From: Mytilus trossulus
Lineage: Eukaryota
NCBI RefSeq assembly: GCF_036588685.1
Contig: NC_086382.1
Span: forward strand, 69,378,001 to 69,442,000
Length of the DNA: 64,000 bases
Direction of reading: 5' to 3'
Every line of letters begins with the position of its first letter. The stretch's first letter is position 1. This document shows, one piece after another, positions 5,500 through 38,620 of the stretch. Position numbers and translations under genes: made by a program. The notes beneath the pieces are model-generated. The model was not told the origin of the DNA. It did no database searches and was given only the letters and a program-made list of their open reading frames with translations.

Positions 5500-8400
5500 T
5501 CGTGGATATCGTCAACAACGTGAGATGATATTTGTATTTGAGATTTTTTATTTCAATTATAATATTATAATAATAATATGCTTTGACTGAATTATTAACC
5601 CTTGAGCTCTTCACCTTTATATATAAGCTTTGGATTTCAAATATTTTGGCCACGAGCATCACTGAAGAGACATGTATTGTCGAAATGCGCATCTGGTGCA
5701 ACAAAATTGGTACCGTTGATTTTATTAAAACAAAGTATAACAGATGTATAGCAGTGTCTCCAGTTATTGAATCTTAAACTGGATATCAGCTCTTTATATC
5801 TTCCTTTGCTTCCATTAATTACGATTATTTTTCTTGCGATTTAATGGTAAATAATTTCAAGTTACCAGGATTACTAAATACTAAAAAAATCAAAACTGCT
5901 TTTTCAAGTTTAAGATGTACATGTTAGCTTAAAGATCGACTAATTGTACACTGACGAAATCTCTTTTTTGGAAAGGGAATTAAAACGAGAAAGCAAACAT
6001 GTGCAAACCAAACACAAATATTAAAAGCAGCAAATTAGTCAAGCACTAAGTAGCATATGACCGAGCATAAATTATGGTGGTGGACAAATATGTTTACCGA
6101 CTCAAAATTCTCTCCTTAGTTTAGAAAGCAATGCAACAGCAGTCGATAAAAATCAGTTTAAAAAAGACAGTTGCAACAATTCACAATAAATAACTCGTAA
6201 GAAATAGTCTAAGCTAGGACATAGATTAACGATCTGAGATATTAAAGCCCGGATGACGAAGTATCAAAAAATTGAAAGACGAAATCATTTCAAAAAGACA
6301 ACACCAGACCATAAAGCAGAATTCAGCCGATTAATGGCATTGGGCTGTATCTGTTTTTTGATCGGTTTGTTTCTATCAAACAAAAAAGACTTACACGTAC
6401 AGTATCAACCAACAAAAGATTTTTTTAATTGTCCAATGTATTCATGATTCCCTAACTGAAAATAAACGTTTTCCACTAATGTTGTCTTAATTCAAATATC
6501 CTAATTAGATGAAGGAAAAATATGAAGATAAAGGCGAAATTATGGCTGAATGCATTTCGGAAAAAGGGAGACAATTCAATCTCAAATATTTGACCAGGGT
6601 AACTCTGTTAAAGATTATACTTGGCATTTGTCGTCCGTGTACTAGTGAAACACCCAACAACACATCACAAACACAAGAATACACACTTGAGTTCAAGTTG
6701 TATCAAGGCAAACTAACCAACAAAACTCTTTTCCGTCAAATATTACTTAGAATAACGTTAAAATTGTGTGCAAACTATGAAATTTGATTGGCATAAACCT
6801 TTAAGAATACTTAACCAACTACCATCATTCGCATGAATATGAATTTCAAGCTGCATACTATTTTTTTTCCAATATTAACACATTATTTTAAGCATAGGTC
6901 TATGTAAACATTCGTCCACACATGTTTTGTTTTTGTATGTACAAGTACCCGGCCACGTCCACTCTACGTTTTAGTTATATGTATTTATGTTTGTATCCAT
7001 CTGATGAGTTGAGCCTTTTCCAGCTGATTTTCTGATGTTGTACTGTTTCCTACTGTCCCATAACCAGGTAAGGGGAGTATGGAGATCCCGCTAACATGTT
7101 TTTAAAACCCCGCCACATTATGTTTGTCTGTGTCTGTCTCAAGTCAGGAGCCTATAATTCATTGGTTATCGTTTGTTGCTGTGTTACATGCGGTATGGGC
7201 TTTGTTCATTTTTTAAGGCCTTACGGTGACCTATAGAAATCATACCATATCTTCTTTTTTACATTAGTTGAGAGAAAAACATCATATATACTTTATAAAT
7301 GTCCGAAGTACACTTCTGGATTTATTTGAACTTCATCTGGAATGCTAAAAATGCACAAATGATGGAAGAACGAAATTACAAATCTGAACATAAAAAGAAT
7401 AGCCATAGTCATTTTTTATGATTCAACTTTTCTTAGGCAGGTGGAGCCTTAGTTTCTTTCTATTCAGACCATTTATCTATCAGTATTTAAAAGATCTTTT
7501 CAGTCAAGTATACGTTGTTTATTAGCTATATTTTTTGTTTGTTTTAGTAGAACAAAAAACATGGCCGGAAATTAACATCAGTTTACTTTGCAATATGTGC
7601 ATGTTTTTTTCTAATTTGTTTTTTCACTTAAAAGCAACATTTTACTACAAAATTGTTTATTAAGATGTTGTCAATTATTCAGATGAATGGATTTCAGTTA
7701 AAACTTGTGTTTTCGTACAAAATTATGAGCTTGTTTAACACTTAATTAATAGACAGTTTACTACAATTCAGTATTCCGGATTTCAATTTGACAATAAACC
7801 TTGTAGTCATAACAAGCATCCGTCTTTTTTTCCCAAAAAATTACGTAAATGGTCTCAAACAGTTTTAACTTTTGAGGTAATTCGCGTACGGGATTTTCTC
7901 GCAGTGTTGAAGACCCATTGGTGGCAATCGGCTGGTTTCTGCTCTTTGGTTGGGTTATCTTTTTGACTCAATTGTGACTTTGGACAGGTACAATCATATA
8001 AAATGTGGCAGGATAAATCGAAAAACATACCGACATTACCTTCGACGTTGTTGTAACAATATAGCATAAGATCAAACTCTAAAAACCTGGCATACAGGGG
8101 TTGACTCATCCGATTTGCAAAACGCATAAACAAATATCCATGTGAAAGGCGTGTAACATGTGTAATGTATTTGACAACAACCAAAAAATGTATTTGATAA
8201 CAATTTTATAATCCTGATTTCAACACATACATGACATAGGCCACGGCTTGTTGAAAAGGAGATAGATGTGAGAAAAGAAAAGACACGAATTCGTGATTCT
8301 ATGGCGTTAATATACAGATATAGATGTGGACACAGCTAAGAGGCTGGACACAGATTTGACTCCAACGTGAATACAGAAAATATATGAACTAATTTCTAAC

Positions 8401-11601: not shown

Positions 11602-13958
11602 CTAGTTTTCAACCTTTCCAGAAGACAGGTCTGAAAATTTAATGCTATTTCTTAGTGGATCGTAACCATCATCGTTCCGGGTGTTAGTATTAGCTCCACA
11701 GACCAACAGTATATCCACCACATAAACTGAGGGAAATGTCATCAGAGAAACATTCCCTACTTTAGATATATTGGGATCTACTGCTAAGTGTAATAATGTC
11801 TGATTATTTATTCCCCTGGGATCAAGTTGAATCAAGTACGCAACTTGTTCTATAAAGTTAACACGCTCAACCACGCTACCACCAATAAACTGGAAAAGTC
11901 GAATTAAATGTAGTGTTAACTGCATTAGGCACTGCAAATTTCCTTGTTCAATAATGGTTAATGGGCGTTTGGTGAGAACATTTTTGCCGCCTTCAATCTG
12001 ACGAACAATCATTTTGAAGACATCAAATACGTCCGTCGTCTGAATCTGAAATGACAAAAGAGCTTATTAATAGAGATAATAAAAATTAAAGCCTAGTACC
12101 TTTGAACCTGATTTTTACCGTTTGATTTATTGTTGTATAGTTACATCACTTTATCAGGATAGGGAATTGGTTCAGGACACACAAACATGTTAACATAGTC
12201 GCATTGTTTATATACCTGTAGTCCAGTGTGTGATGTTGGTCATTTTATGTCACTATTATTTGTCATTTACTATTTTAGGTTTAAAGTTTTTCGTTATATA
12301 TAATTAGTCTTCGTTTTTGGTTGCTTCGAGTATGCATTTCCCAGTCTTAAAAAGACAGATGACAAATACTAAAGGGATAATCAAACTATTTACTAGAAAC
12401 TGACAACGGCTCCCTAAAGAAACAGCAATCGAATAAAAAACAGTCCAAGCAAAACTTCAAATAAGACGGGATTTAAGTCGTTTACTTAATTGGAACACAC
12501 CGTCGTCAACAGTGAAAACAGATATCTCACAACAGCCAAATAATCTGTGATGGTGTCTGTACAACTTTTAGATAACCGGGCAAAAGACATATTACCGAAA
12601 AAATCTTAACATTTAGCGTGAACATTAAAGCTCATTTTTATTTAAAATGGTTTTTATCTGAAAAACTTATTGTATTGATTGATATTTTGTAAAAAAAATT
12701 ATTTATAACAATTACCTGTTCTGTTGTTTTCTTGTTAACCCATTTTGTTTCCAATTCACAAATCATATCAACTAAACTTATCGCACTTTGAATAGTGTCA
12801 GCATTTAGAGGATCGTCTAGTTTTAACCTTAGGGTGTAAGCGTATTTCCATAGTTCGACGCATCGCTGGTAACAACCATTATCGCCATAAAGAGCACCAC
12901 GAAAAATGATCTTCCCGATTGTAACTGGATGATTTTCGCCATAAATCCGGGAATATTTTAGCAGTGCTTGCATGTAAAAGTCATTTGGATCAGTCAGTTG
13001 ACGTAAAGTTTCTACTGACATAACTTCAACTGCACGATTCAAGAAAGATACCGGTTTTACCTCCCTGTCAGTGTTGGTAATAGTATTTATCAATTCAAAA
13101 CGCAGCTTTAATGCTGTTTCCCACATTAAAACACAACGTGTAATATCATCATCCACCAAAGAACAACCAATCAAATCAAAAGCATCGCATTTTTCTTCGA
13201 CTGGAAATTCATAAGTGTCTAGAAAGTATTTTATAACAGTTGAACTACCTCTGAGAGCAGCGATTTTAAGGGGCGTTTCTTCATAGTTTGTTTTGGCGGT
13301 CATTGACCCTCCATTTCGACATAATAACTTCACGGTTTCTAATTTATGAGAGTGTGCAGCATGATGTAAGGCCGTATATCCATCCACACTTGAAGCGTTA
13401 ACACTTGCTCCTTTAGAAATAAGATATGCACATAGTTCTGTGTTATCTACAGCTGCCATTAAACACGAATATCCTTTTTCTGTAATATTTCTGAGGTTTG
13501 CACCATGTTCTACGAGATATTCTACCATAGGCATATTTAGCGACCCACATGCCGATATTAATGGTGTCGACTTTACACTGGTCAGTCCATTCACGTCTGC
13601 TCCATGTTCAGTCAGAAGTTTTATTATATCAAGCCCATTTTCAAGACCTGTCGCACACCATAAAGACGGAGCTTCAATTCCACTTTCCCAGGTGGGTGCT
13701 TTAAAGAATCCGTTTTGTTCAACGTCGGGGTCACATTCGTCCAACAGATATTTTACAATATCTGCATTACCCTTTATGTATACATGCCTGAACTAATGCA
13801 GGCCTTTCATCGATCTTGAAAGTCACGATTGATTTCCGCTGGCTTATTGTCAACATACATAATGTACTGATGATTTTGTTAAGTTTATCTTCATCAATAT
13901 ATGTGTGTATAATCCTGGCAATCTTTTTAATTTCAGAATTACTCAGTTCAGCTGACAT
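11602..13958 (-). pseudogene. fem-1: FEM1-like ankyrin/TPR protein, copy A, frameshifted
   Basis: Exon1 13958-12716 (CAG|gtaatt), exon2 12045-11602 (tttcag|ATT). FEM1 motifs APSLWCA, STPLISAC, RGALYGDNGCYQRCVELWKYA, LDPRG..QTLLHLAV, FPS..VV.ILL.CGA. A 4-bp insertion near 13775-13780 relative to copy B gives a stop after 63 aa. Confidence 0.85.
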
Positions 13959-14159
13959 ATTTGTTATATATATACCTTAGGAACGGTAGTAAAACAGCTG
14001 ATCAAAACTGTATAACGGTATTTACATCCCTGTCTGTAAAGTACCTTTAAACCGTATCGATAATCAAAAATCTAATTTTAACTTTACCATTGACGATGAA
14101 GAAAAGTGATTTTTAGAAACAATGCATCGAAAAAGTAATTTGATATTTTAGACTACGTG

Positions 14160-14275
14160 TATATCATTTGGAAATTTTCAGTTCCGTGTGAGTTGATCCA
14201 TAAATATACATATATATACTTAAATCTATCTACCTGTTCTAGATATTTAAATAATTGACCTTGCTCGACGTTAAA
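14160..14275 (-). promoter_or_regulatory. Upstream block conserved between the two FEM1-like paralogs; kB-like GGAAATTTTC
   Basis: atcatttggaaattttcagttccgtgt...tatctacctgttctagatatt...tgaccttgc is nearly identical at 21428-21530. Confidence 0.5.
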
Positions 14276-14825
14276 TATGTCAAATAAACTAAGATAAAAT
14301 TAGGTTATTAAAGTTTGAAATAAAGGAAAAAGTAGTATGCAGCTATTCGAAACTCAACAAAAAAAAAAATCAGGGTTACAAACTAAAACTGAGTGATAAG
14401 AGGAGAACAACGACACAAAAGAAACACAACATAAAAATGAAACACACTGAGAAACGTTACAACATTTATACTTAAATAATTTTTTTAATCTAAATCAGTA
14501 TATATTTCATCAACCGAGCGATCATAGCCAAATTTCAGAAAAGACTTTGTCACCCCTTGGTGGCAATGTTTGTTTATATATAAAATATTAAATTTTGATG
14601 AAAATAGATGATAAAAAATCGATTTGGTCGGCATGTTTTCAAAATGTTTGCTCCAAAACTTGTTACTATTATTCTGATAGAATACTAAACATGCAGATGG
14701 TGGTCAGTGCACAATATATACTTTAATCATGATTCAATATCTCTCGAACTTGTATTATAAAAATGCATCAGACAGTCACAGATAAAGATTAATTTTTATT
14801 TTTAATAAAGGATTCATTATGGGAA

Positions 14826-14962
14826 AAATAAACTCATCATAGATACCAGGATCAAATTTTGTGTTTACGCCAGACTTGCGTTTCGTCTACAAAAGACTTA
14901 TCAGTTACGCTCGCATCCAAAATAGTTCAAAAGGCAAAATAATGTACAAAGTTGAAGAGCAT
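14826..14962 (-). mobile_element. Degenerate retrozyme-like fragment (variant family) with mutated hammerhead core
   Basis: Minus strand gagcgtaa-CTGATAA-gtc ttttgta gac-GAAAC-gcaa-GTC-tggcgt. Confidence 0.6.
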
Positions 14963-17585
14963 AAAAATTATATGTATATACATTATACAAAGAATATACA
15001 AAGGAAAAACAGCTCAAACACGAGATATAATGCAAGTTAACATCTAAACCCATCTAAACCACAATGTTCAGTGTTCTTTATTTATCATTCGGAAGCAGCA
15101 CAATATATCCAGTTGAAAATAAGCTTTCATGAGTAAAATCTATCTCGAGGCTGGTGCATAATTATAAAGTTATCTAAATACAGGAGCCCGGAGCCCCTAA
15201 GGTAATTCGTACCTTAAGTTTATTTAGAAAGACTAACTGTCATGCAGTTATTCAAAGATTTGCCTCATATTATTAGTAGACAGATGTTGTTTTTCTTGTT
15301 TCTATTAACTCTTTGAATGTGGATATCAATTTTCCTCGTTTATTATATAAATCTAGACATAAAGTTGTCATATTTCAAATAAAATCAAATATTATTCTGT
15401 TATTGCAGAGAAAAATCAGTTATTTTCTTTTGTTATAAGAGTTAGTTATAACTGTGTTATCGTTGTTGGAAATCTGAAGGAATCTGACGTAACCGACGTT
15501 TAATACACTGCCAGGGTGGAATTTTTGCAAAACACTTCTTATAACAACAACTAAATAACTGTAACTCCAAACGAACAATTTGAAATTTATATAACGCAAA
15601 AACTAATATTCTACAGTTTAATATTCTTGTTTCATTTAACGATAAAACAGTAGTCTGATCTTGGTGATTCCTTGTATCGTTTGTCAGTTTGTCTCGTCAT
15701 TGGTAATAAGTGACGGGAGTATTATTTGTACAAATACATCGTACTCAGTAACATCTTGTTATGTTATGTGCACCAAAAATAAGAAAACATAAGATATAAA
15801 AAAAATCATGGCCGAAATCATTTATAAAACAAAACAATGGTGGGAAGCAGCGAAAACATAATAATAAATAAACATAATTCAAGTTAAGTCTTTTTCATAC
15901 TTAAACACTTTCCGTTTTTTCACCCCATTTTGTCTAAAGAGCAGAAAAAGAAATATTGATCATGTTCAGGACAAGCATTTCAGGAAATCATTGTGCTAAA
16001 GTTTCTATACAGAATAACAAGTATTATGGCATGTGATTTCTACTACTTGTTATATCAGCTTTGGTTGTATTTTATTGTATCTACACATAATTATCTACAG
16101 ATCTACCAATGGTATTTCATTAGTCCGAATCTAACGGTAATTTTAAATTATATAAACTATAATACTACATTTATGACTCTTTTTTTTTATTATTTAAATG
16201 AAGACTGTTGATAGACTGTTTATATAGTCAAAGAAGTCTTTAATCGTATGAATATATATATATAATCAGTTAAAGCACTTGATGTATGCCGAAAGTAGAA
16301 ACAAACTCAGTATATCACTCCTGGAAAGGAACATGCTAAATATAAACTTAATTCAAGACACAAACACAGCATGTTTTCTTAACAGGAACCATATATAAGT
16401 CAATCCTTGCTGTGGTAAGCTCTCTGTCATTGTAAGGATCTTTTGTGCTTCCATTAGGAACAGGCGTCAACATTAAAGGCGGTATTATAGACTGATTTGT
16501 GACGTCATTTTCAACTTAGTAGTTAGCAAATAATTTGCGGTTTTTATACACGTAGGCATTTTACAGTAGAGTATCTACAAAGCTATCTTTAGAATGAACT
16601 GACAATCACAATATCTAGTCGTGTTTAAAGAAAATTCTATTTCAGTTGGCGATTTTTCTATTATCTTTCATTTAATTAATTTAATCAAAACGTGATTTTT
16701 TATCATTTGAGTCGACGACTGCTACATTTTTCTTTAGCGTTTGGCACTGTGTTTTCCCTGGTTATTAAATTTTGTTTCTTAAATAAAATACCGACCTCCG
16801 ATGAAAATTCCAACCAAAAACTATATGAGCAAATGGCAAATTCAAACACTCAAACGCATCGAACGAATAGATAACAACTGTCTTAATCCTGACTTGGTAC
16901 AGGCAGAACATTAAATTTCGGTTAATTATGAAATAATACCAGTGCAATGTCGAGTTTGTCAGTTTTTTCTGTGATTACATTTTGAATACAACAAGGATTA
17001 CCTATAGGTTAGAAGCAGTTCATTTATCTTTATGTTTCTATTTGCAATGTAGAATTAAGGATAATCTCATTTGATACGTTTGATAATACAAGAATATATT
17101 ATAAGTGTTTAAACCTTTTGTAAACTATACAGTTTTTAGAACACTGTATATGTATGAATCAACTGTTCTGGGGGTTCAATAAACGCATCATGTTTTAACA
17201 ATGGATTATTCACTCGTGCTACCAATGCTGAAAACTTTTACATGAGAATTGACGACCATATCTTTTTATCTCTCGTATAGTGACTAGTTGTATGAGTTCA
17301 TTCGTACTTCGATACTTTTAGGATAGAAAAGACGTAGCAAGACGCACACTATATGATAATTGAGTACACAATATTCATAATAATAAAGGGCATCAACATA
17401 TCAGAATGAGTAGCGGTTTAAATGAAAAATAATTTATTTACAAAATTAATATTGTGTCAAATAAAATTAAAAAAAAAAAAATTAACAAAACAAACCAAAA
17501 AATAAATTAAATAAAATTGAAATCATTTAGCTGTTTTTTAAACGATGGACTATAATTTTCTTCAACAGATTTTTTCCATTTTCTT

Positions 17586-20500
17586 TTAAACCTTTTCAGA
17601 AGGCAGGTCAGAAAATTTAATGCTTTTTATCAGTGGATCATATCCATCGTCGCTACGGATAAAAGTATTTGCTCCACAGACCAACAGTATATCAACCACA
17701 TAAACTGAGGGAAATTTCATCAGAGAAACATCTCCTACTTTAGAAATATCGGGATCGACTGCTAGGTGTAATAATGTCTGATTACTTTTTCCCCTGGGAT
17801 CCAGTTGAATCAAGTACGCAACTTGTTCTATAAAGTCTACACGCTCAACCACGCTACCACCAATAAACTGGAAAAGTCGTATTAAATGTAGTGTTAACTG
17901 CATTAGGCACTGCAAATTTCCTTGTTCAGTAATGCTAAATGGGCGTTTGGTGAGAGCAATATTAACGCCTTCAATTTGACGAACAATCAACTTGAAAGCA
18001 TCCAAAACATCAGTCATTTGCACCTGAAATTATAAACAGGCAAATCAATTTCAAAATTGAAAAAAATCTAAAAATAAATAGTATTACCCTTTTTAAATGA
18101 ATTTTCTTGTTTGTTTTGTTGTTATTGCGTTGGATTATTTTCTTGATTAGGAACCAGTGTGAGCACTCACAAACATATTTAATTGAACCGACTCGCACGT
18201 TTTGCTTGGTTATTTTCTATCATTGTGTTTTTCTACTTATTATCTAAGGTCTTAATAATTTTTTCGTTTGTTTTCTCATTTGGTTCTGTCGCATCTGAAA
18301 TTTCACAACCCTTAACGAAAGCCAGAATATACCAAAGGGCATTCCAAACTCATTTGTGTAAAAAACACAAAAGTTAGCAACAAATTAAAAACGTCTAATA
18401 GTTATCAAAGGTACCAGGATTATTATTTAGTAGGCCAGACGCGCGTTTGTTCTACATAAGACTCATCAGTGACGCTCATATTAAAAAAAGTTATAAAGCC
18501 AAACAAGTTAAAAGTTGAAGAGCATTGAGGATCCAAAATTCCAAAAACATGTGCTAATACACCTAAGGTAATCAATTCCTGGGATAAGCAAATCCTTAGT
18601 TGTTCAAAAAATCACAGTTTAGTAAACTTGAAATTTATGAAAAATGACCACATATTGGATATGTATGTCAACCCCGAAGTGCTGACTACTGGGCTGGTGA
18701 TACCCTTGGAGACGAAACGACCACCAGCAGTGGCATCGACCCAGTGATGTAAATAGTTATCGAAGGAACCAGAATTATAATTTATTACACCAGACTCGCG
18801 TTTCGTCTACATAAGACTCATCAATGACGCTCATATAAAAAAAAATTATAAAGCCAAACAAATTAAAAGTTGAAGAGTATTGAGGATCCAAAATTCCAAA
18901 AGGTTGTGCCAAATACGGCTAAGGTAATCTATTCCTGGGATAAGAAAATTCTTAGTTTTTTTTAAATTTAAAAAGACAAATAACAATTCACAAAACAAAA
19001 CATATAAAACTAGAGACTGACGAATACAAGCCCAATCAAACCATTGTAGATTCTCAAGTAGATCTTGACTATTATTTAAGTGCCAAGGTTTGATATTATT
19101 GGGCTTTTTGATTTTTCCATTTCATTTGAGACTTTCCGTTTTGAATTTTCTTCCGAGTTCAGTAGTTGAGTGATTTTACTTTTTGGTTATCAGTCTCATT
19201 CGGTAGAGCATTTTCAAGGAAAAGAGAATATGATTGTTGTTTACAATTGGAACGTTTCTGGCTTCATCTGTGAAACAGATATTCCTTTATGGTCACACAA
19301 TCGATGACGGGTCCGTTAAATTCTCGATGGGGTGACAATATTACTTGGAAATTTTGGTTGAAAACTTTCTTGTAAAAAGTAACCTTCAATCGAGGAAACC
19401 ATGATAGTAAATTCACTGGAAAAGTGAATGAAGTATGAAATTCATACTCCATTGCGGGCCAATTCCATCCAAATTATGCAGCTGAAATCTGTCTTGTGAC
19501 GTTAATTTTTTATTTCAACCGACCCTCCTTGTCGATTTTATTATTTAATTTGGATACCAATAAACCAGGTTTAACCCACCTGTGTTTCCTAAAATGACCT
19601 GCATCAAGTCAGAAATATGGCAATTGTTATCAAATAGACCGTTTCTATGTATGATGACATTTGTTTTGTTACAGTTCAGTGTTTCTGTTGTTCCGTTGTT
19701 TTCCTCTTATAGTTGAATGGTTTTTGTTTCCTATCTATCTTTGTGTTCGCTTAATCGATTGGTGACTATTTAACAGTCACATACTGTTTCATTTGTTTTA
19801 TAGCTAAACATATGACATGGGTTTTTTTCATTGTTGATAGCCGGGAGCAAAATAAATATTAAGGAAAACATCTAAACATTTTAGTGGTGACATATCACTG
19901 CATTTAAGGTTCTTTTTTTTCAAATAACTTCACACAGAAGTTATATTTGTATTAGTCTGGATTTTTAAAACCGTTGTAAATAAATTACCTGTTCTTTTGT
20001 TTTCTTGTTAATCCATTGTGTTTCTAATTTACAAATGATATTTACTAAACTTATCGCGCTTTGGGTAGTGTCACCATTTAAAGGATCGTCTTGTTTTAAT
20101 CTTAGCGTGTAAGCGTACTTCCATAGTTCAACACATCGCTGATAACAGCCGTTATCGCCATACAGAGCACCGCGGTTAAAGATATTTCTGATTGTTACTG
20201 GATGACTTTCACCATAAATCCTGGAATATTTCAGTAATGCTTGCATGTAAAGATCATTTGGTTCAGTTAGATCACGTAAAGATTCTACTGACGTTATTTC
20301 AACTGCATACTGAAAGTAAGATACAGGTGTCACCTTTCTTCCAACATTGGTCATAGTTTGAGTCACTTCATCACGCAGCTTTAATGATGTTTCCCACATT
20401 AAAACACACCGTGTGACGTCATCGTCTACTAAAAAGCAACCTAATAAATCAAACGCAGCGCATTTTTCTTCGAGTGGGAATTCATAAGTATCTAGAAAGT

Positions 20501-21227
20501 ATTCTATAACCAACGAACTGCCTCTAAGAGCAGCGATTGTCAGGGGTGTTTCTTCATAGTTTGTTTTGGCGGTCATCGATCCTCCATTCCGACATAACAG
20601 CTTCACGGTTTCTAATTTATGAGAGTGTGCAGCGTAATGTAAGGCCGTATATCCATCCAAACTTGATGCGTTAACACTTGCTCCTTTTGAAATAAGATAC
20701 GCACATAGTTCCGTGCTAGCTACGGCTGCCATTAAACATGAATATCCTTTTTCTGAAGCTTTCCTGATGTTAGCACCATGTTCGACGAGAAATTCGACTA
20801 TAGGGATATTTTGCAATATACACGCTGATATTAATGGCGTCGAATCCGAATTGGTAGGTCCATTCATGTCTGCACCATGTTCAGTCAGAAGTTTTATTAT
20901 AGCAAGTCCATTATCAAGACCAGTAGCACACCATAAAGGTGGAGCTTCAATATCGTTTTCATAAGTTCGGATTTTAAAAAACCCTTTTTGTTCAACATCA
21001 GGGTCACATTCGTCCAACAAATATTTTATAATATCTGCTTTACCCTTTAAACATGCATAAAACAATGCAGGCCTTCTATCGATCTTGAAAGTCACTATTG
21101 ATTTCCGCTGACTTATTGTCAACATACATAATGTACTGATGATTTTTTGGGGTTTATTTTCATCGATACATGTATGTATAATCCTGGCAATCTTTTCAAT
21201 TTCAGAATTACTCAGTTCAGCTGACAT
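17586..21227 (-). CDS. fem-1: FEM1-like ankyrin/TPR protein, copy B (~558 aa, 2 exons identified)
   Basis: Exon1 21227-19989 (413 codons, CAG|gtaatt), exon2 18023-17586 (tttcag|GTG), phase 0. Ankyrin repeats and the same FEM1 motifs as copy A. A further 3' exon after AAG|gt is possible but was not found. Confidence 0.88.
18398..18960 (-). mobile_element. Retrozyme-like tandem repeat (355-nt unit, ~1.6 copies) with two hammerhead motifs, in the FEM1-B intron
   Basis: GUC cleavage triplets end at 18793 and 18438 (-). Cores are TTGATGA..GAAAC and CTGATGA..CAAAC, each deviating from consensus. Same family as 22500-22942. Confidence 0.85.
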
Positions 21228-21427
21228 ATTTAATATATATACATAGATTCCTTAGAAACGGTAGTTAAAACAGCTGATCAACACTTAGCGATATATACGT
21301 CCATATTTGTAAAATAACTTTAAACGTTTTTGAATCATAATCCAAAAATATAATATCAACATTTGAAATGATGAAAAGTGTTTCTGAAATCATGCGTCGA
21401 ACACATAATATAGGATATAAGACAAAA

Positions 21428-21530: not shown

Positions 21531-21872
21531 ATATTGTAAAAGTAATTATAGTTTATCAAAGTTAAAACATTACTATCTTGAATGTATTTGTGATAGACTT
21601 CAATAATAGAACGATAATCGACCAAATATTATGTAAGATTGTATCAATCCCTTCATGACATTGGAATGTTTGATCATGCTAAAACTTCACAATAAACAAT
21701 GTAAGCAGATACAATAAGACCAAATTGAACCTAACGTTTTATTAGAAGAACGCAAAGAAACGCGTTACTACTATTCTAATCGGATAATTAACATACATTT
21801 GGTACTCAAGGTACAACATATAGTTTTCCCAATGCTATACAAATTTATACTTTGCGTTGAAACTAATTGAAC

Positions 21873-21954
21873 TGAGCGTCACTGATAAGTCTTGTGTAGA
21901 TGGAACGCGCGTCTGTGGTATCACATTATTTACCTTGTACCTTTGAAAACTATT
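21873..21954 (+). mobile_element. Solo degenerate retrozyme/hammerhead fragment
   Basis: gagcgtca-CTGATAA-gtcttgtgtagat-GGAAC-gcgc-GTC; core mutated. Confidence 0.65.
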
Positions 21955-22509
21955 GAAGCCTTAACTGGAATACAATTATTACTCTATAAATATTTGCCAC
22001 ATTTAAATTATTCCGTCTGAAATGTTTGCCAATCGTTGTATTTCTATTTTCCTTGGCATATATTAGGCTCCCTTGTGTCTATGATATGATACACCAAGTA
22101 TATCCAATAGTCGTACACATAAACACAATCAAAAGCAACTAAAACATGGCAAATAAGTTTCAATTATGATAATAAAAAAAAATATGAGCTTCATTTCTGT
22201 TGAACTACAATGAAGCTAAAGCCGCTGAATGAAGATAGAAATTAACGGTCCTCCGAAGTCTTACAATTTCAAAAATATTGTTAAAGAAGAAGGTCTTTGG
22301 TTTAATTACTTTACCATACTATTAAGTGATTCAATTTGCAGCTTTCTTCTCCTGTTAAATACATTATTGCAGATCCTGTATAATCTTCACTCGTATGATG
22401 CTCTACTTATTAAAAATAGTTCAATGTTAATAATAAACAATTATTATGCTGTGTGTTCTAAAAGATTTATTTTACCATAAAAAGAATACAATGCAATATT
22501 TTGATATGA

Positions 22510-22553
22510 GCGTCACTGATGAGTCTTATGTAGACGAAACTCGAGTCTGGCGT
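22510..22553 (+). ncRNA. Type I hammerhead ribozyme, intact core
   Basis: Stem I gcgtca/tggcgt; CTGATGA 22516-22522; stem II gtc-ttatgta-gac; GAAA 22536-22539; minimal stem III C-tcga-G; cleavage after GUC at 22547. Confidence 0.88.
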
Positions 22554-22863
22554 ACTAAATTATAATCCTGGTAATTTTGATAACTATTTACACCACTGGG
22601 TTGATGCCACTGCTGGTGGACGTTTCGTTCCCGAGGGTATCACCAGCTCAGTAGTCAACACTTCGGTGTTGACATGAATATCAATGACGTGGTCATTTTT
22701 ATAAATTTCCTGTTTACAAAACATTGAATTTTTCGAAACACTAAGGATTTTCTTTTCCCAGGCATAGATTACCCTAGCCGTATTTAGCACAACTTTTTGA
22801 AATTTTAGATCCCCAATGCTCTTCAATTTCATACTTGTTTGGCTTTATTAATATATGATATGA

Positions 22864-22907
22864 GCGTCACTGGTGAGTCTTATGTAGACGAAACGCGCGT
22901 CTGGCGT
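22864..22907 (+). ncRNA. Type I hammerhead ribozyme, core variant CUGGUGA (likely impaired)
   Basis: Same architecture as 22510-22553 with loop III gcgc; A-to-G change in the CUGAUGA box. Confidence 0.7.
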
Positions 22908-23800
22908 ACTAAATTATAATCCTGGTACTTTTGATAACTATTTGCAACAACTGAGGAACTCCTTGGTTTTTGTTTCATTCATTCAGAAATATAAAAGTGT
23001 ACAACTTTAATATGATCATATGTGCTTACTTTGTAGAAGACGATAACAACCGATTCCATCAATGATAAAACCGGTGCAGCTATACCATCAGTGTGATAAC
23101 AAAATTTTGGAAATAATGACATGACGATTTGTTATTGCGGATCGAGTAGTAGAGATAATTAAAAAAAAATCAAACCGGTAAATGACTGGGTAACATTCAC
23201 TTTATCTAAACACCCACGATTAGTGGACCATTCGTCTTCTGTTTCACTGTTAAAATACATGCATACGTGTTGATAAGATCATCACCAGATAGAAAGGACC
23301 ACCTGCCTCCCTATCAATAGTAAGTTTACACTGTGTTGATAAGCCAAGTATCTCTATGAAGAAAAACACTAAGGTCTGTACAGCGTGGTAAGTGTCACAA
23401 TTTGCTCTTTATTTCCTTTAATTCATAGTTCAATGTTTTTATAAATAATATTTTAGATGGAATTGTATAAATTGCCAAATATTTCTTATCTTTATTGTTT
23501 CTACGGGTTAATCACTATATTTATATTGCACAGCCAAGTCAGACTCTTTCTAATGTTATAAGATTCTGTTCCGTGTTTATTAAAGTTTACATATCTAATC
23601 AAGTTGTACATATTGCTAATTATTACATTTTTTATACAATTATATTCACATGTATAGTTTATAAAATGTGCCTACTTAAATATGTTCGTTTTTTTAAATA
23701 TAGTTCATCAAATTTCAAAACATTATTTCTATTTGATTATCTATGTATAAATGATTTATTAGCAAAACTTTTGATCATATTTTAGACGTTAGCAGTATCG

Positions 23801-27813: not shown

Positions 27814-30612
27814 TATAAATATGAAGTGATTTGGTTGTATTATTTTCTGGATTTAAGCATTACATTACATTGCAGTGGTGTTATTACTCGACGGAAAACA
27901 ACATGAAATGGTACAATGGTGGCATCGACCTACCAGCGAATATATATTTAAGTTCTTACAAAATATTTAATCAGAGGTAAAAAGAGAGGAAATAGTATTC
28001 TTATTCGATGCAAGTTGACGTTTTTGGTTTCTGTTGACTTGTTTGTAGTTTAAAGGCTAAGTAAATGTACCACTTTAAGTTTATCATTTGTGTGTTTGGT
28101 TTGTTGTCTCTTAGTTGTATACCCATTATCTTTTAATTCATCAGATAATACGACAAAGAAATAGTTATTGAATAGCTAGTCTTGTTAGATCCAGCAGAAA
28201 TAAATCATGATCGTTCTTTTTTAGTTGTATACAGTTATTATCACGATCTTCACTGTTTATTTGATATAACTTTATTTTTGATTACAATATATATAAAGAA
28301 ATAAACGTTAGCATTAACATTACTTACCAAATTCCCGAATTAAAGAATTTGTCTTTTGTTATTAATAAACAGTTTCCGACGAAAGTATTCACTCAATAGT
28401 AGGTCTTCATGCCATAATCTAGAAAATGCAGAACATTTTCCACTAACAGTTGAATTGTATGGTTTCCGTCTTGAACAAAGGATGCTATTACAGGACAGGA
28501 ATGAGTTGCATAAAACATCGTTGAATTATTCAGATAAGTTTATACACAGGCTTGATTAGAATCGAAATGGTACAATAAGAAGTTCGTCCCAGGAGTGCAA
28601 CTTGTGTTAATAAATCAATGTTATTACATATTTCCATGCTACAAAAAATATTACATTGTTCACTCATTTGATGTCGATTTCTTGAATGTACACACGCGTG
28701 AATATTTCTTATTACTAATGTATTACGTTTAATAAATTTCTATACAATATATCTGGTTTAATATTTATCGAATTAAACCATTAAAACAATTCGAAAAATA
28801 TGTCATCGTAATGGTGATTTTCAAAAGGCAACATTATAAGTCTGTTATGCTGCCATAGTGATAGACATGATAACTGCTTTGTGTTTCTTATCATGCGTCA
28901 GTTCAGAAAGAAGTCGTATACTACTTTGCCTTTGTCCGTGTGTATGTCCAGCGACATATCTTTTTTTTTAAGGAACTGCAAATCAGAATCTTGTAGTTAA
29001 TGTAGACTACATGTGAGCAACACACCGGCGTCTAAACAAGTGAAAACTCTACGATAGATATATCCATTTGGGTCACCAGTGAAGGTGGTACAAGGATGAT
29101 AACATATATTTTATATATGCCTTCGGGTTTATATGATTCTATTTCGACCATTCAAATTATATGGCTTTCCAAATACCGTGTCGATTCCTAACATTACCGA
29201 AGACACATTGGTTGTCGAAATCCGTACTATTTTTGGCACCTTTTGTTTGCGGTATACCATCTTTTCCGCAAGTTTATTTGTTTACTGTCAAATTAATATT
29301 TAAATTCCATTTGGTTACATCTGGTGATCCATTTATTTGGCAATCGCCAATGACAGTCAGCAGGGTTTAAAAACTAAATCACAAAAATACTGAACTCAGA
29401 GGAAAATCTAATCGGAAAGTCCATAATCACATGGCAAAATAAAATGACAAAACGCATCAAAAATGAAGGGACAAGAACTGTCACATTCCTGACTTTGTAC
29501 AGGCATTTTCAAATGTAGAAAATGGTGGACTAAACCTGGTTTTAAAGCGCTAATCCTCTCACTTTGATGACAGTCTCGTCAAATTCCGTTACATTTAGAA
29601 TGATGCGTGGTCTACACAGATTAAATTGTCACTGGAAAGTGCCATAGCGGTTAAATGTAATGTTTATTGTAATGTAATTTTTTTTTTTATTTCAATTCCA
29701 AAATATTTAATCATAGCAGTTGCAAGCTCATCATGATAATCGCATCCATCGTCTATCGACTTTCTGTCTAGCGAATAGATAAACCATGGTTTTATAGTTA
29801 GCTAAACCTCTAACTTGTATGACAGTCGCAGTAATCTTATTTTTTTTTGTCGCATTCCTGATCATCATCACTATAAATATATATCAAAAGTTTACTACAT
29901 GGCATCAAGCTTTTCCAGGTAACAAGTTTAGGTGTAATATAGAAGTATGATTCCTTTTCTTTCTGATGGTAGTTCTGAAAGTGTATCCGTTTTGTACTTC
30001 TTGAATATTTGAGTTATATGTAGCAATAAAAACGAAATTGTATGATAAAATAAAATCTTCTGAATGGTATATTTGTATATCTATGATATCTAGCGTGTCT
30101 TGTGTTTAGGAGATGTTCCAGAACAGATTTTGACATTTTTTAAGAAGTGCTATACGATTTCGGAAAATATTTTTTTCACGAACTTTTATTGATGAACTGA
30201 GTGAAAGGGTAAAATCATCACGGTTCTCTTAATGTTGTTCTATTTTCCACATTTCTTTATCCTTTATCGGTGTGTGCAAAATGTTTCTCTATAATAGTGA
30301 AAAATTGCCGAACTGTTCTCGGCAAATAATTGGTCGAAAATGAATTATGACGTCAAATTCTCTTGGTTTCTTCTGAATTTTACTATTGTAACGCCAGGAA
30401 AAATAAAAGGGCGACCATGTCTGATGGCGTCACATATAAAGAACATATATATACGTTACGCAAATCTTTGAAAAGGGAGAATAAAAAACATCAGAGAAAC
30501 AGGCAAGCCTCGAGCTTTTTAATATTAAAATCAAACTGTCTCGAGTGGATAATTATAGTAACACACTTGTTGCAGTGATGAAATCTAAATTTTCATTTTC
30601 AAAAAAGAGCGA

Positions 30613-32042: not shown

Positions 32043-34120
32043 TTAGTAGCCTTTCACAGTATCAATAAACCCACTTGCTCTCGAAGACTTTTTATATTCC
32101 AGTGCAATAATATCATCGTAACGTCTCAATGTTACTCGGATGCCATTTACGATTATAACGCTACCAGCTAGCACATCACGTGATTTCTGACTATCTAATA
32201 AAATGATCCATCTGAAAGACATTGGAAAGTACTGGAGAGATTTCATGCGACACTCTTTGTTTGAGAATAACAGAAGTTTCAGTTGATGGTACACGTCTTC
32301 ATGTGAGGCATGACTTCCGCCCAGATCAAACATCAAAGCATTTGGAATAGGATCCGGTTGTGATTTTGTTTCACTTATTTTAGCGTACTTTTTAATTTCT
32401 GCCATTACGTCATCAAATATTTCATTAGAATACCTGCAAAATTAAGAATAGCATACAAGGTTCATTTTTTTGTGGAGTTTCTGTAAAATTGTGAATTATT
32501 ATACTGTTATATTTTACAAAGTTTAAATATAGTTCCATGATTCGAAATGTATCCGTACAATTTAAACAAGCGGGACTTAAATAAAAGAAATAAGCCATAT
32601 GATACCATTCACACGCAACTTTTTTTTTAAAATAATACATTGATTTTTCAAAAGGTGTATCTTACAGGTAGTTTGTCCCTGCAAACTATTTTTGTAATGC
32701 TCCCGCAACTAAAAACTTGGGAGCATATTGTTTTAGTATACCCTTGTCCGTTCGTCCGTCCGTAACATTATAGGTAACCGTATATATAGTTATTCAGCAT
32801 AACTCCACCTACAGATTGAATCCTAAGAAGTTTTCACTTTGCTGTCTGTTCGTATACATAATTTTAATAATTATATGGTCAGGGTTTAGATTTTTATAAA
32901 TATTTTCTCTTTCGGGAGGTAGTTGAACTTTGTCAAATATGGTCAAATATTTGGGGGTATTTAAGCGGTCAAATGCTATAGTTAATTTTTAACACTTTGC
33001 ATCTGCGAGGGCATCAATTGTGTCTCGCTGACAAAAGGAAATTTTAAGAAAATCCTATACTGACTTTGTTATAAAACAGTTACTTCAGAGTGGAGTACAG
33101 GGACATCACTTTATCTAGTTAACAGTTGTTCTTGTTTTTAAGATCTTTTAATTTTACATCAGTAATCTAAACGCTGCACCATGAGTTGGTTGGCCAATAT
33201 GGAATGTCCGTTTCACAGATGATAGTGGATATGTTCCTAATCTACAATTCCGTCCCTTTTTGCACGAATGTGACCTGCCGACTTAGAATTGTTACCGGGT
33301 TTGCAACAACATGAGCAACACGACGGGTGTCACATGTGGAGCATGATACATTGTATGCTTACCCTTCTAGAACACTTAAGATTAACCCCAGTTTTTGGTG
33401 GGGTTCGTGTTGCTTAGTTTTTAGTTTTCTATGCTATGTTTTGTGTTCTTTTGTTTGTCTTTTGTGGCCGTGATGTAGTCAGTTCATTTTTGATAAATGA
33501 GGTATCTTTCTCCTCTCTTTGTCACCACTCTGCTCTAGATCACCAATACTAACATAATGATAAATAGACGAACTAAATGTGTATTATTACCTGTGAAATA
33601 ACTTTTTCAGTTCAAACTAATTCAACAAATTTTGCATGGGTGTCTTTAGATCGGAATCAGAAACATTAAACTGGACACATGTAACGGTTAAAGAACATAC
33701 GCCATTGACGAACACAACTATGACGTCATTGACGGATCAAATACATGACGTCATAGCCAAATGGCTTAGATTTTGTAAGCTTTTTTAACACAATAATTTG
33801 AAAAAAAATATCACTTACTTGACTTTTTCTTTCTTTGGTGCACGAGGTGTGTTTGATTTGGAGGAAGATTTATTAAATGTAGAAACAGTGGGCACCGATG
33901 TTTCTGATGATGTGTTCGTAGTTAACTTCACTGGTCCTTTCGTTATAAATGAATTTGATTTCGTCAGCATCTTCGGCTTCACACACTTTAGCCTAGTTTC
34001 ACCTTCTTTTAGGGAAGATTCCAATTTTGTTTTCGTCTTTGCCTTTCGTCGCCATTTACGAGCGAACTTTGTCGGTCGGATTTGTTCTTGGATAACAAGC
34101 ATTGCAATTCTACGAAACAT
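32043..34120 (-). CDS. Atypical RRM-like protein, paralog 2 (~230 aa, 2 exons; basic Ser/Thr/Lys-rich N-terminus)
   Basis: Exon1 34120-33819 (AA|gtaagt) joins exon2 32433-32043 (ttttgcag|G) in frame: ..KKEKVK-YSNEIFDDVMAEIKK.. Confidence 0.8.
33170..33520. repeat. Interspersed repeat fragment
   Basis: The ..gattaaccccagtttttggtggggttcgtgttgct segment recurs inverted at ~37640-37700. Confidence 0.5.
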
Positions 34121-35687: not shown

Positions 35688-38620
35688 TTAATTTACTTTT
35701 ACTGTCTTCATAATTTTGGGTGCAGATTTCGCTTTTTTCATAGAAATCGGTAATTTCAAGTCTCTTTTCTCGCCTCTTATCTTTTCTAAATACAAATACG
35801 TCTGGTGTTCTCTGCTTGTTATCTCATCTAAGGATTTTATGACAATTTGGACATCATCAAGTCTGAATCCAGCACGAACCATGTGATCTGCTTCCAACTT
35901 GCTTGAAACTTCCACCAACCATCTGTTTCTCACAACAGTATCGCCAGCACGTACAGACAATGGGTCAAACTGTAGTTTTGTGATATCACAATTGAATTCG
36001 TTCACCAGCATATCTTTTACCTCTTTGTGAGAATACTTTTCATTTTCTGGTAGACTGAAGCACACCACTAGAGGATGTTTTTCTGGAGGTATTTTGAGTG
36101 TATGTGTAGCCGGGTAGCATCTATCTTCATATTTACTAGTATCCCATTTTTGGGGCAGAGCTGGCGATTCTTCAACATCCATATTGGCACCCGTCGATCT
36201 TATAAAATTGAAATATGATAGTAAAGTACAAGTAGAGCCTAGCACCAAAAAATATTTTAAACAAGAATGTGTCCATAGTACACGGATGCCCACTCCCATT
36301 ATCATTTTCTATGTTCAGTGGACCGTGAAATTGGGATAAAAAATATAATTTGGCATTTAAATTAGAAAGATCATAACCTAAGGAACATGTGTACAAAGTT
36401 TCAAGTTGATTGGACTTCAACTAAATCAAAAGCTACCTTGACTAAAAACTTTAACCTGAAACTTGCACTATCATTTTCTATGTTCAGTGGACCGTGAAAT
36501 TGGGGTCAAAAGTCTAATCTGGCAATTAAATTAAAAAGATCATATCATAAGGAACATGTGTACTAAGTTTGAAGTTGATTGGACTTCAACTTCATCAAAA
36601 ACTACCTTGACCAAAAACTTTAATCTGAACGAACGAACGGACGGACAGACGGAAGGACGGACGGACGCACAGACCAGAAAACATAATGCCCCTTTACTAT
36701 CGTAGGTGGGGCATGAAAACGTGTGTGAAATGTGCGTAGCCGTGGTAATTTTACTTTTATAAATACAGTTAATGTAGAATTTAACTATGTTGTAATATTT
36801 GTTTTCGAAAACTGTTGGTGTAACAATTTCTTTTAAATAGACCAAACAAATTAGAAAGAAAGAAAAATAAACATCACGCTTAGTTTTCATGTGCTCCTAC
36901 ATTTAATGTTTATTTTTTAAGGTATCAAATTCGATTGACTTTGACAACAAAAACCAGATGAAGTTAATTAGCATCCAGCAAATTTGAAACCATGCACCAC
37001 AAAATGAAATGTTTTTAACGATTATTATACGTTATGGATTTGGAATAAAGGTAAAAGTGCAAACAGCAGCCTTAGTTAAGTATATACATAAATTCATTTG
37101 TTCAATAATTTCCATACCATAATCAATATATTCACCAGAAATCGTTTTTATGACATTAATTTGGGGGGATTTCAAATTGTATCCAAATTGTCTACAGTTG
37201 CAATATGTTGACTGAATATATAATTAACTGAAAGTAAAATGTTTCCGAATAATGTTTTCATACCCTTTATCATTTATATTTTTTGTTTCACTGCCTAATA
37301 CAAATATTCATATATTTCTGATAAAAAATATGTTGACTGTCCCGTACAATTATTTATAATTAAATTTCATTTACACTAGATGGTCGCAATGTCCCATCGA
37401 GAATTGATACATTATTTTTTTAATAATAGCCATGCGCTATATTTTTTGGTGATTTGTTTTCCCCAAGAATTTAAAAGTCAATCATATTACAAGCTTTTCA
37501 TCTTCCCGAGTCTCGGCGAGTTTGGAATAAATAATAAATAAAGGTCATTAAAAGAGGGGCTAAAGATATAAGAGGAACTCATAAATCGAAAATAAACTGA
37601 CAAATAATACTACACAAGAAACAACATAGAAAACTAAAAACTGAGCAACACGAACCCTACCAAAAACAAGGGGTGATCTCAGGTGCTCGAGAAGTGTAAG
37701 CAGTGTTGCTCGTGATACAAAGCTATATTTTCCGTCAAGTCATAGTTTGTTTACTGTAAATGATGTATCATAGTGAATATGTGACCTTTTTGTATAATAG
37801 CGCATGGCTGGTGAATATCTAATCATAATACATGTATGACTAACGACTTTTCATAGGTCAAGCTTATAATCGTCACAAGCCTTGACGAGTTTTTGGATTA
37901 AACAAAAGCCATCAAATTATCAGTTTATGGTTTGTCTACTGTATCATAGTGAATATGTTACCTTTTAAGTAGATCTATATCTGGCTCATTAACCTCGCTG
38001 ACCTCACTGACTTCTATATTTGTAGATGTAACGAGAGTTTCACTTTTATCTTCGATCTCTGATGCATTCTTTTTAAACAGGGTGGCTGATGGCTTAGCTC
38101 TAGCTTCTTTTTCTCTGAAAGGATCCCGAAACCCTAACGACCGAATGTTTTCAGGTAGCTTATACTCGGAAGCTGTCTTAACGTCATCTGTAAATGAAAC
38201 CTGTCTTCCGTGCATTCCCACAGCTGCCGACTTTGGTCTATAAAGTTCGCCATTTTCATTCTCACTCCTATGGACTAAACATCCAGTTTTCGGCCTGACT
38301 CTGTCGGCAGTTTCTTTATAGAATTTCCATTGAAAGCTATCTATAAGCGGGTTGTAGGATAAAATTGATTTAAAACCTTTCAACTTTAAAATCTTGCTCA
38401 TCTTTGTACGTATTTCATTTTCGTTGCCGTGCATGTATGCTTCCAAGTATTTAACGTCCTCAGATGCACAAGCTTTGTCAAATAATTCATTGATATCTAC
38501 ATTGTTCACCTCTGCAGGCTTCGTAAAACAAGAAGCGGATCCTGCTCTATAAGAACTCAATGGTATATGGTATTTTGATTCTATATTACGTAAAATCATA
38601 GCCTGGCTTGATGTAGGCAT
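35688..38620 (-). CDS. Atypical RRM-like protein, paralog 3 (~389 aa, 2 exons)
   Basis: Exon1 38620-37962 (AG|gtaac) joins exon2 36198-35688 (ttttataag|A) in frame: ..DLLK-R-STGANMDVEE..; shares F.L...SH.(D/E)V...L..I..LQF..RW.V...S..D..D(D/E)I...E with paralogs 1 and 2. Confidence 0.75.
36259..36718 (-). mobile_element. Non-autonomous Helentron-like (HINE/pearl-type) element
   Basis: Two ~169-bp internal tandem units, (CGGA)n microsatellite, short atgccc/gggcat inverted repeats and terminal hairpin; lies in the paralog 3 intron. Confidence 0.7.

Follow-up and report, generated by a model that had tools for sequence, protein, structure and literature searches.

The window analysed here is a 64,000-nt stretch of the Mytilus trossulus genome (NCBI RefSeq assembly GCF_036588685.1, contig NC_086382.1, positions 69,378,001 to 69,442,000). 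The feature of interest, a short insertion carrying two hammerhead ribozymes, lies between a fem-1-like ankyrin gene on the minus strand and a collagen/C1q gene on the plus strand, the divergent neighbours that the first-pass annotation had named. The 12 best protein matches of the fem-1-like exon are all from Mytilus, and positions 11602-21251 hold a tandem duplication (offset ~7,270) of this Mytilus-expanded gene. All six hammerhead-derived motifs that had been counted within 14.8-22.9 kb were found again, and only that at 22516 has an intact core. Other repeats of the window include truncated 3' pieces of the Penelope-like elements (PLEs) Naiad1 and Naiad2 (16792-16905, 19088-19538, 29392-29830, 33177-33465, 37594-37703 and 53820-53890) and a 50-nt satellite in 34 copies with tandem repeats of 161 nt and 125-135 nt after it (46163-49571). 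At 55642-59988, three overlapping frames (483, 747 and 964 aa) with reverse transcriptase and RNase H-like matches look like a DIRS-type retrotransposon, its recombinase being our own reading with no match in Pfam.

A motif scan places the core CTGATGA of hammerhead 1 at 22516 and the core CTGGTGA of hammerhead 2 at 22870, with predicted cuts after 22547 and 22901. This is the arrangement first read from the letters: tandem type I hammerheads with GUC sites 354 nt apart, a perfect first core and CUGGUGA (A6G) in the second. Both motifs are of canonical type I (helix I of 6 bp, helix II of 4 bp, helix III of 2 bp with a palindromic tetraloop) by the definition in PMC4209133, and the label "minimal", which belongs to the PLE type, has to be dropped. 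The search with Rfam hammerhead models proposed earlier did match both (RF00163; 31.2 bits, E 2e-5 for hammerhead 1 and 25.7 bits, E 0.0013 for hammerhead 2), each below the gathering score of 34; at the gathering threshold the whole window gave zero matches. The loose core pattern alone occurs at chance level (2 observed, 1.98 expected). The full hammerhead fold, unlike the loose pattern, is not a product of chance: across subfamilies 72 of 72 cells are paired and 4 of 12 pairs have changed on both sides, in a count over six rows with relatedness uncontrolled.

Two other candidate ribozyme features were rejected. An apparent minus-strand hammerhead near 22613-22646 is unable to form helices I and II, belongs to hairpin P3 of the module described below and is not conserved in subfamilies B and C, and the locus thus lacks the minus-strand hammerhead of an ambisense viroid-like circle. 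A putative anti-ribozyme segment is a local, non-conserved hairpin; it pairs with the core at a probability of 0.33 in this copy, against 0 for the family majority.

The extent of the insertion is given by its empty allele. In four of four other haplotype contigs that reach the site, from three of four runs, 22493 is joined directly to 22941, and the insertion is therefore 22494-22940, not 22500..22942 as initially drawn; the fourth run (X17), which carries a deletion there, gives no information. The empty haplotypes differ by ~6-8% from the filled one, the filled allele was seen in none of the independent runs, and the left flank is single-copy in the genome. There is no clean target-site duplication at 22494-22940, and an apparent TGCAA duplication was discarded as unsupported by the empty allele. 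The TTT common to the element end and the empty target (Table 1) likely reflects primer pairing.

Table 1. Retrozyme copies and their parts in the window
Feature	Positions	Strand	Remarks
Whole insertion, 447 nt (1.26 units), 5'-truncated	22494..22940	+	from empty-site comparison
Unit, cut to cut, 354 nt, 38% GC, non-coding	22548..22901	+	
3' tail to the family's fixed 3' end	22902..22943	+	TTT 22941-22943 shared with empty target
Hammerhead 1	22510..22553	+	canonical type I, intact core, rare loop III UCGA
Hammerhead 2	22864..22907	+	core change A6G (22873)
Naiad 5' module: invariant internal loop flanked by helices P1-P3	22592..22654	+	unit positions 45-107
Hairpin P4 and CATGAA, aligned with likely Naiad start codon	22654..22678	+	
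Second, more decayed subfamily A copy	18397..18973	-	both hammerhead cores damaged
Old 5'-truncated copy	21830..21954	+	hammerhead relic
5'-truncated copy nearest subfamily B	14826..14962	-	core G8A
5'-truncated subfamily C copy	5605..5727	+	intact hammerhead with compensatory changes

That the insertion belongs to a retrozyme family is practically certain. The unit, 353-355 nt long across the family, falls within the 150-450 nt and the GC content under 45-50% that define such elements and occurs in arrays; no 100-aa frame spans it, its repeats are unit overlaps and not LTRs, each unit of the family carries a type I hammerhead, and the empty allele together with copies on many contigs marks it as dispersed and mobile. 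A genome search with the unit returned 9,646 candidates, and the 84 matches scored are mostly 91-93% identical. The genome holds 2,986 exact intact hammerhead 44-mers and 7,963 exact 28-nt retrozyme tails, in arrays of two units to dozens at a spacing of 352-362; one array near a contig start (C1:269255-298676) covers ~80 unit lengths. Subfamily B has 415 exact matches, subfamily C is also present, and a related family E comes from metagenome contigs.

By size, abundance and hammerhead type, this is almost certainly the non-LTR retrozyme published for Mytilus in 2020 (PMC7229834), as the statement that retrozymes had been reported in mussels implied. The retrozyme that this study (Cervera and de la Pena 2020) describes from M. 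galloprovincialis, Mg353, is cleaved in vitro, and its RNA accumulates in circular form. Mg353 and the present family are alike in genus, in a unit within 350-390 nt of low GC, in tandem arrays, in the thousands of canonical type I hammerheads of related families and in abundant RNA; unlike Mg353, the copy studied here has one damaged hammerhead and no target-site duplication. The accessible text of PMC7229834 reports no fixed 3' end, shared motif or partner element.

The family is transcribed, mostly from the ribozyme strand. None of the listed sequence records that contain the stretch is an RNA. Of the reads in three raw-read RNA runs of the same species label, 0.03-0.09% fall on the unit (6,010 out of 8.7 M, 7,007 out of 8.3 M and 3,621 out of 12.7 M), and in the two apparently stranded runs the ribozyme strand is favoured by ~5:1. 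Between 61 and 82% of these reads continue into unlike sequence, so that much of the signal comes from read-through or from other subfamilies. Reads cross the unit junction, as reads from tandem DNA would, and read starts and ends do not pile up at the cut sites in any of the three runs.

Whether this copy still contributes to the RNA pool is another matter. The first-pass annotation had taken it for the template of a small self-cleaving circular RNA; its place in the family stands, and its own output is doubtful. The unit carries 22 differences (5.9%) from the family majority and is the most diverged of 61 aligned units, all picked as best matches of this very copy. The A6G change in hammerhead 2 is of a kind that causes strong loss of activity in mutagenesis, and the loop III palindromes of the two hammerheads are mismatched (UCGA and GCGC), the 21-mer variant with UCGA having 4 exact occurrences in the genome. 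Release of a monomer is unlikely because of these two defects, and the copy probably yields few or no circles. The copy also falls outside the definition of an active copy in Li et al. (2026), a complete hammerhead in at least two consecutive units, having 1.26 units and A6G. In our estimate it is unlikely to make circles at all; active production of 354-nt circles from this locus, perhaps with effects on its neighbouring genes, is just as unlikely. Such activity would draw on the intact hammerhead 1 with its still palindromic loop III, on the dimer fold, in which core 1 could cut site 2 (an extrapolation from the dimer model in PMC4209133), and on a structured module whose pairing is kept through G-U pairs. 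Against it, besides the two defects, stand the cost of the hammerhead fold in transcript models (5.6-9.7 kcal/mol) and the zero RNA depth on the flanks of the insertion in three of three runs, from animals that may lack the insertion. The predicted stability of the whole circle is not unusual (z -1.35).

What the copy shares with its family is the way it ends. Among 60 loci taken in genome order from the list of exact hammerheads, 58 had an end inside the locus, and in 52 of these the 3' end falls at +38 to +47 past the cut, with scattered 5' ends. This fixed end, ~41 nt past the cut, lies directly before a 63-nt structured segment. It also appeared in 12 of 14 loci of a first, smaller set; in a set chosen by best match, 6 of 22 loci ran on, partly since the pattern had missed variant hammerheads, and we rely on the position-ordered sets. 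Only 2 of 59 5' ends lie within 4 nt of the cut, which is no enrichment, and the insertions therefore carry no direct trace of cleavage; 5' inversions were found in none of the 60 loci. For target-site duplications, which in retrozymes are optional and longer than 4 bp when present, there is a weak signal across the family: the mean longest shared word is 4.73 against 4.46 when permuted (n=51), with 7 of 300 permutations as high. Fixed 3' ends combined with scattered 5' ends are what target-primed reverse transcription leaves behind when it begins at a fixed internal site.

The 63-nt segment is better conserved than any other part of the unit outside the ribozyme: identity between subfamily A and B, C and E is 87-94% there, compared with 51-79% in the spacer and 63-88% in the 5' part of the hammerhead. 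It is also the sole significant match between the unit and the PLE Naiad2 (E 1e-13). The module of this copy agrees with the 5' start of Naiad2 at 52 of 63 positions, within a 71-nt match, and that of the family majority at 55 of 63 without gaps; the match extends to the likely Naiad start codon. The two modules are alike in predicted fold, and the outer helix has three double changes relative to Naiad1. Over its four helices, 97.5% of 200 cells pair, compared with 33-42% in slid controls, and 8 of 25 pairs change on both sides; the shuffles of this count ignore relatedness, and only 8 of the rows are distinct.

The module extends well beyond this genome. Its core 10-mer occurs exactly at the 5' start of at least 11 of the 54 published Naiad consensuses in the supplement of PMC8557442, from bivalves, two hemichordates and a toadfish, with core variants in an Ostrea, a Modiolus and three Acropora consensuses; by our reading of those consensuses, the flanking helices appear to covary as well. 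Of 120 loci in a metagenome scan, five contain the structured module; two of them resemble families of this genome and three belong to another retrozyme family that Rfam does not recognise. That family, seen on a metagenome contig (L403:100-520), has a 343-nt unit with a different hammerhead-like motif and the same module and end register. The module is likely a reverse-transcriptase recognition element, and we regard it as a first candidate cis-signal for Naiads.

Naiads dominate many invertebrate genomes, and two families are present in this one. A search for GIY-YIG endonucleases, with 150 of 615 candidates scored, gave a Naiad family (Naiad1) and several families of PLEs with a C-terminal endonuclease, and a search with a more distant Naiad protein revealed Naiad2; the PLE set examined thus comprises Naiad and C-terminal-endonuclease families. 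Naiad2 is young and intact: it has a period of 3,370 bp, frames of 1000 aa, copies 98.6-99.2% identical and 5,443 exact 3' ends. Its size and partial tandems agree with those of Naiads (3.4-4.4 kb), its protein is 55% identical in amino acids to the Naiad1 / Naiad_Mgal type, and its translation reads as an N-terminal GIY-YIG domain with an upstream Cys cluster, CxC, GxKF/Y and DKA motifs and a C-terminal reverse transcriptase, the Pfam match to GIY-YIG being weak (E 0.039). Naiad1 matches Naiad_Mgal/Mcor at the 5' start and the N-terminus. Naiad2 has no match in Rfam, and the one locus scanned for a hammerhead core (L298) has none. Text searches of the supplement of PMC8557442 did not turn up Naiad2, and the passages of that paper examined contain no description of the 5' RNA module.

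Both Naiads also end where the retrozyme ends. All 16 near-full-length Naiad2 loci terminate immediately ahead of the module, as do 29 of 29 terminal, position-ordered Naiad2 loci (a sample chosen for containing the last 33 nt, so that only the lack of extension is informative) and 18 of 18 terminal Naiad1 copies, a count that leaves out one diverged and one rearranged anchor match. Relative to the Naiads of Craig et al. (2021, PMC8557442), then, the retrozyme shares with both local families the module, tandem copies, 5' truncation and end register; unlike Naiads, which lack a hammerhead, it has one, and it has no ORF. Template-switch chimeras of Naiad and retrozyme are not confirmed: they number 0 of 29 among the unbiased Naiad2 ends, against 2 of 16 and 1 of 18 in the sets in which they were first noticed.

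A 29-nt match to the retrozyme tail in Naiad1 was rejected as a shared 3' end: it lies in one 3' UTR repeat of one subfamily and is a captured fragment of the retrozyme 3' end that this subfamily has spread (L120:6654-6682; also L125, L128, L129, L134 and L135). The Naiad1 3' UTR also contains, ~110 nt before the 3' end (L116:6200-6248), a weak match to twister-P1 (18.5 bits, E 0.34), which, if real, would occupy the position of the retrozyme's hammerhead.

Mobilisation by Penelope-like enzymes had been put forward for retrozymes in general in the first-pass annotation. Our data support this and narrow the partner to a Naiad through the shared module and end register; on sequence evidence, a Naiad is probably the mobiliser of this retrozyme. 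With nearly the same confidence, we read the locus as a 5'-truncated, partly decayed retrozyme insertion, predicted to have been copied by a Naiad reverse transcriptase that recognises the shared folded RNA segment. Hammerheads would cut multimeric transcripts to monomers and a host ligase would close them into circles, as published for the mussel family. The protein of whichever Naiad acts would then bind the module and nick AT-rich DNA, whose 3' end would pair with a few Us immediately 5' of the module, cDNA starting there, inside the RNA. Copying stops at scattered points, leaving fixed 3' and variable 5' ends.

This start has consequences for the template. It lies only ~41 nt after the cut, and a linear cut monomer could therefore give only a 41-nt insert. 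The 447-nt insertion crosses the cut site twice, from which we infer a circle or an uncut multimer as its template; a circle is somewhat the better candidate for the usual template. The module, being 3' of the start, is left out at the 3' end of the copy. For this reason autonomous Naiads would rely on tandem transcripts, and a retrozyme monomer on being circular. The retrozyme is likely a parasite built from a Naiad module and a hammerhead. Since its homology covers only ~70 nt of a PLE that lacks a hammerhead, the ribozyme itself would have come from elsewhere.

One could instead suppose that the module is a mere relic of a Naiad 5' end and that another enzyme moves the retrozyme, either a hammerhead-bearing PLE of the Neptune or Poseidon kind or a LINE. 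The published model does tie retrozymes to hammerhead-bearing pLTRs (bioRxiv 10.64898/2026.07.22.740005), and hammerhead-bearing PLEs with a C-terminal endonuclease are present in this genome, Poseidon-type elements lying outside the examined set. In a relic, however, identity would not hold at 87-94% while dropping to 51-79% in the spacer, nor would the ends of insertions keep to the Naiad register, and we consider this explanation improbable. The C-terminal-endonuclease (Neptune-like) PLEs in particular were rejected as partners: the loci examined share no sequence with the unit (E 0.3 or more in four loci), their hammerheads are different, and they mostly end in TA microsatellites, which the 3' flanks of the retrozyme do not. 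Still less probable is that the module acts as DNA, as an endonuclease target or internal promoter, and that the family spreads mainly as a satellite through recombination or DNA rolling circles. The very long homogeneous arrays (C1:269-299 kb) fit such spread, which may still account for those arrays, and the endonuclease of the D. virilis Penelope needs a DNA tail sequence (cited in PMC11167929); yet compensatory changes and G-U pairs point to a single-stranded structure, and copies that are dispersed and keep one 3' end while varying at the 5' end follow the pattern of target-primed reverse transcription.

A separate hammerhead repeat of 548 nt (family D; L138:380-1510 and window 29154-29374), in which the Naiad module was not seen, has fragments that adjoin TA microsatellites beside the ends of C-terminal-endonuclease PLEs, so a different partner is possible for that family. 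A repeat that looks tRNA-like stands beside the TA microsatellites at such PLE ends at four loci (L138, L147, L177 and L178).

The proposed initiation by a Naiad resembles that known for a lizard PLE, whose protein nicks ATT-rich DNA and starts cDNA internally beside an AC-rich stem-loop, in a reaction that needs RNA 3' of the start (PMC11167929). That element, Poseidon_Ac (Frangieh et al. 2024), likewise ends downstream of its hammerhead, at an ATT next to the stem-loop; it belongs to another PLE clade, and its start is non-homologous to the target, unlike the 3 nt of microhomology seen here at one locus. The Xenopus retrozymes of Li, Clavereau and Pollet (2026, bioRxiv 10.64898/2026.07.22.740005) are also non-autonomous dependants of PLEs with homology at the PLE termini. 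Those are derivatives of pLTRs, whereas homology in the mussel is restricted to the ~70 nt noted above, and the accessible text of that preprint mentions no mussel, Naiad partner or initiation site and calls the mechanism of mobilisation open. A 2020 review (PMC7761336) likewise states that animal retrozyme repeats hold no conserved motif revealing the retrotransposon used. We found no printed report of a link between retrozymes and Naiads, in a search with subscription journals and Repbase/Dfam notes outside its coverage.

Neither the locus nor its family is new or unusual; what matters is the link to Naiad. It names a partner that has intact young copies, and it adds a covarying 63-nt candidate recognition element and a predicted start, which together make it testable in one in vitro assay. 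Taken together, we marginally favour the hypothesis that an undescribed 5' RNA element, present in Naiads from molluscs to hemichordates and a fish and as a variant in corals, directs reverse transcription to start internally, immediately upstream of the element, and that mussel retrozymes are minimal parasites composed of this element and an unrelated hammerhead. The hammerhead's task would be to make the circle, because only a circle puts the whole monomer upstream of the start, and the mechanism would thus give a reason for circularisation. If this is true, the element would be a portable tag making any circular RNA a Naiad template.
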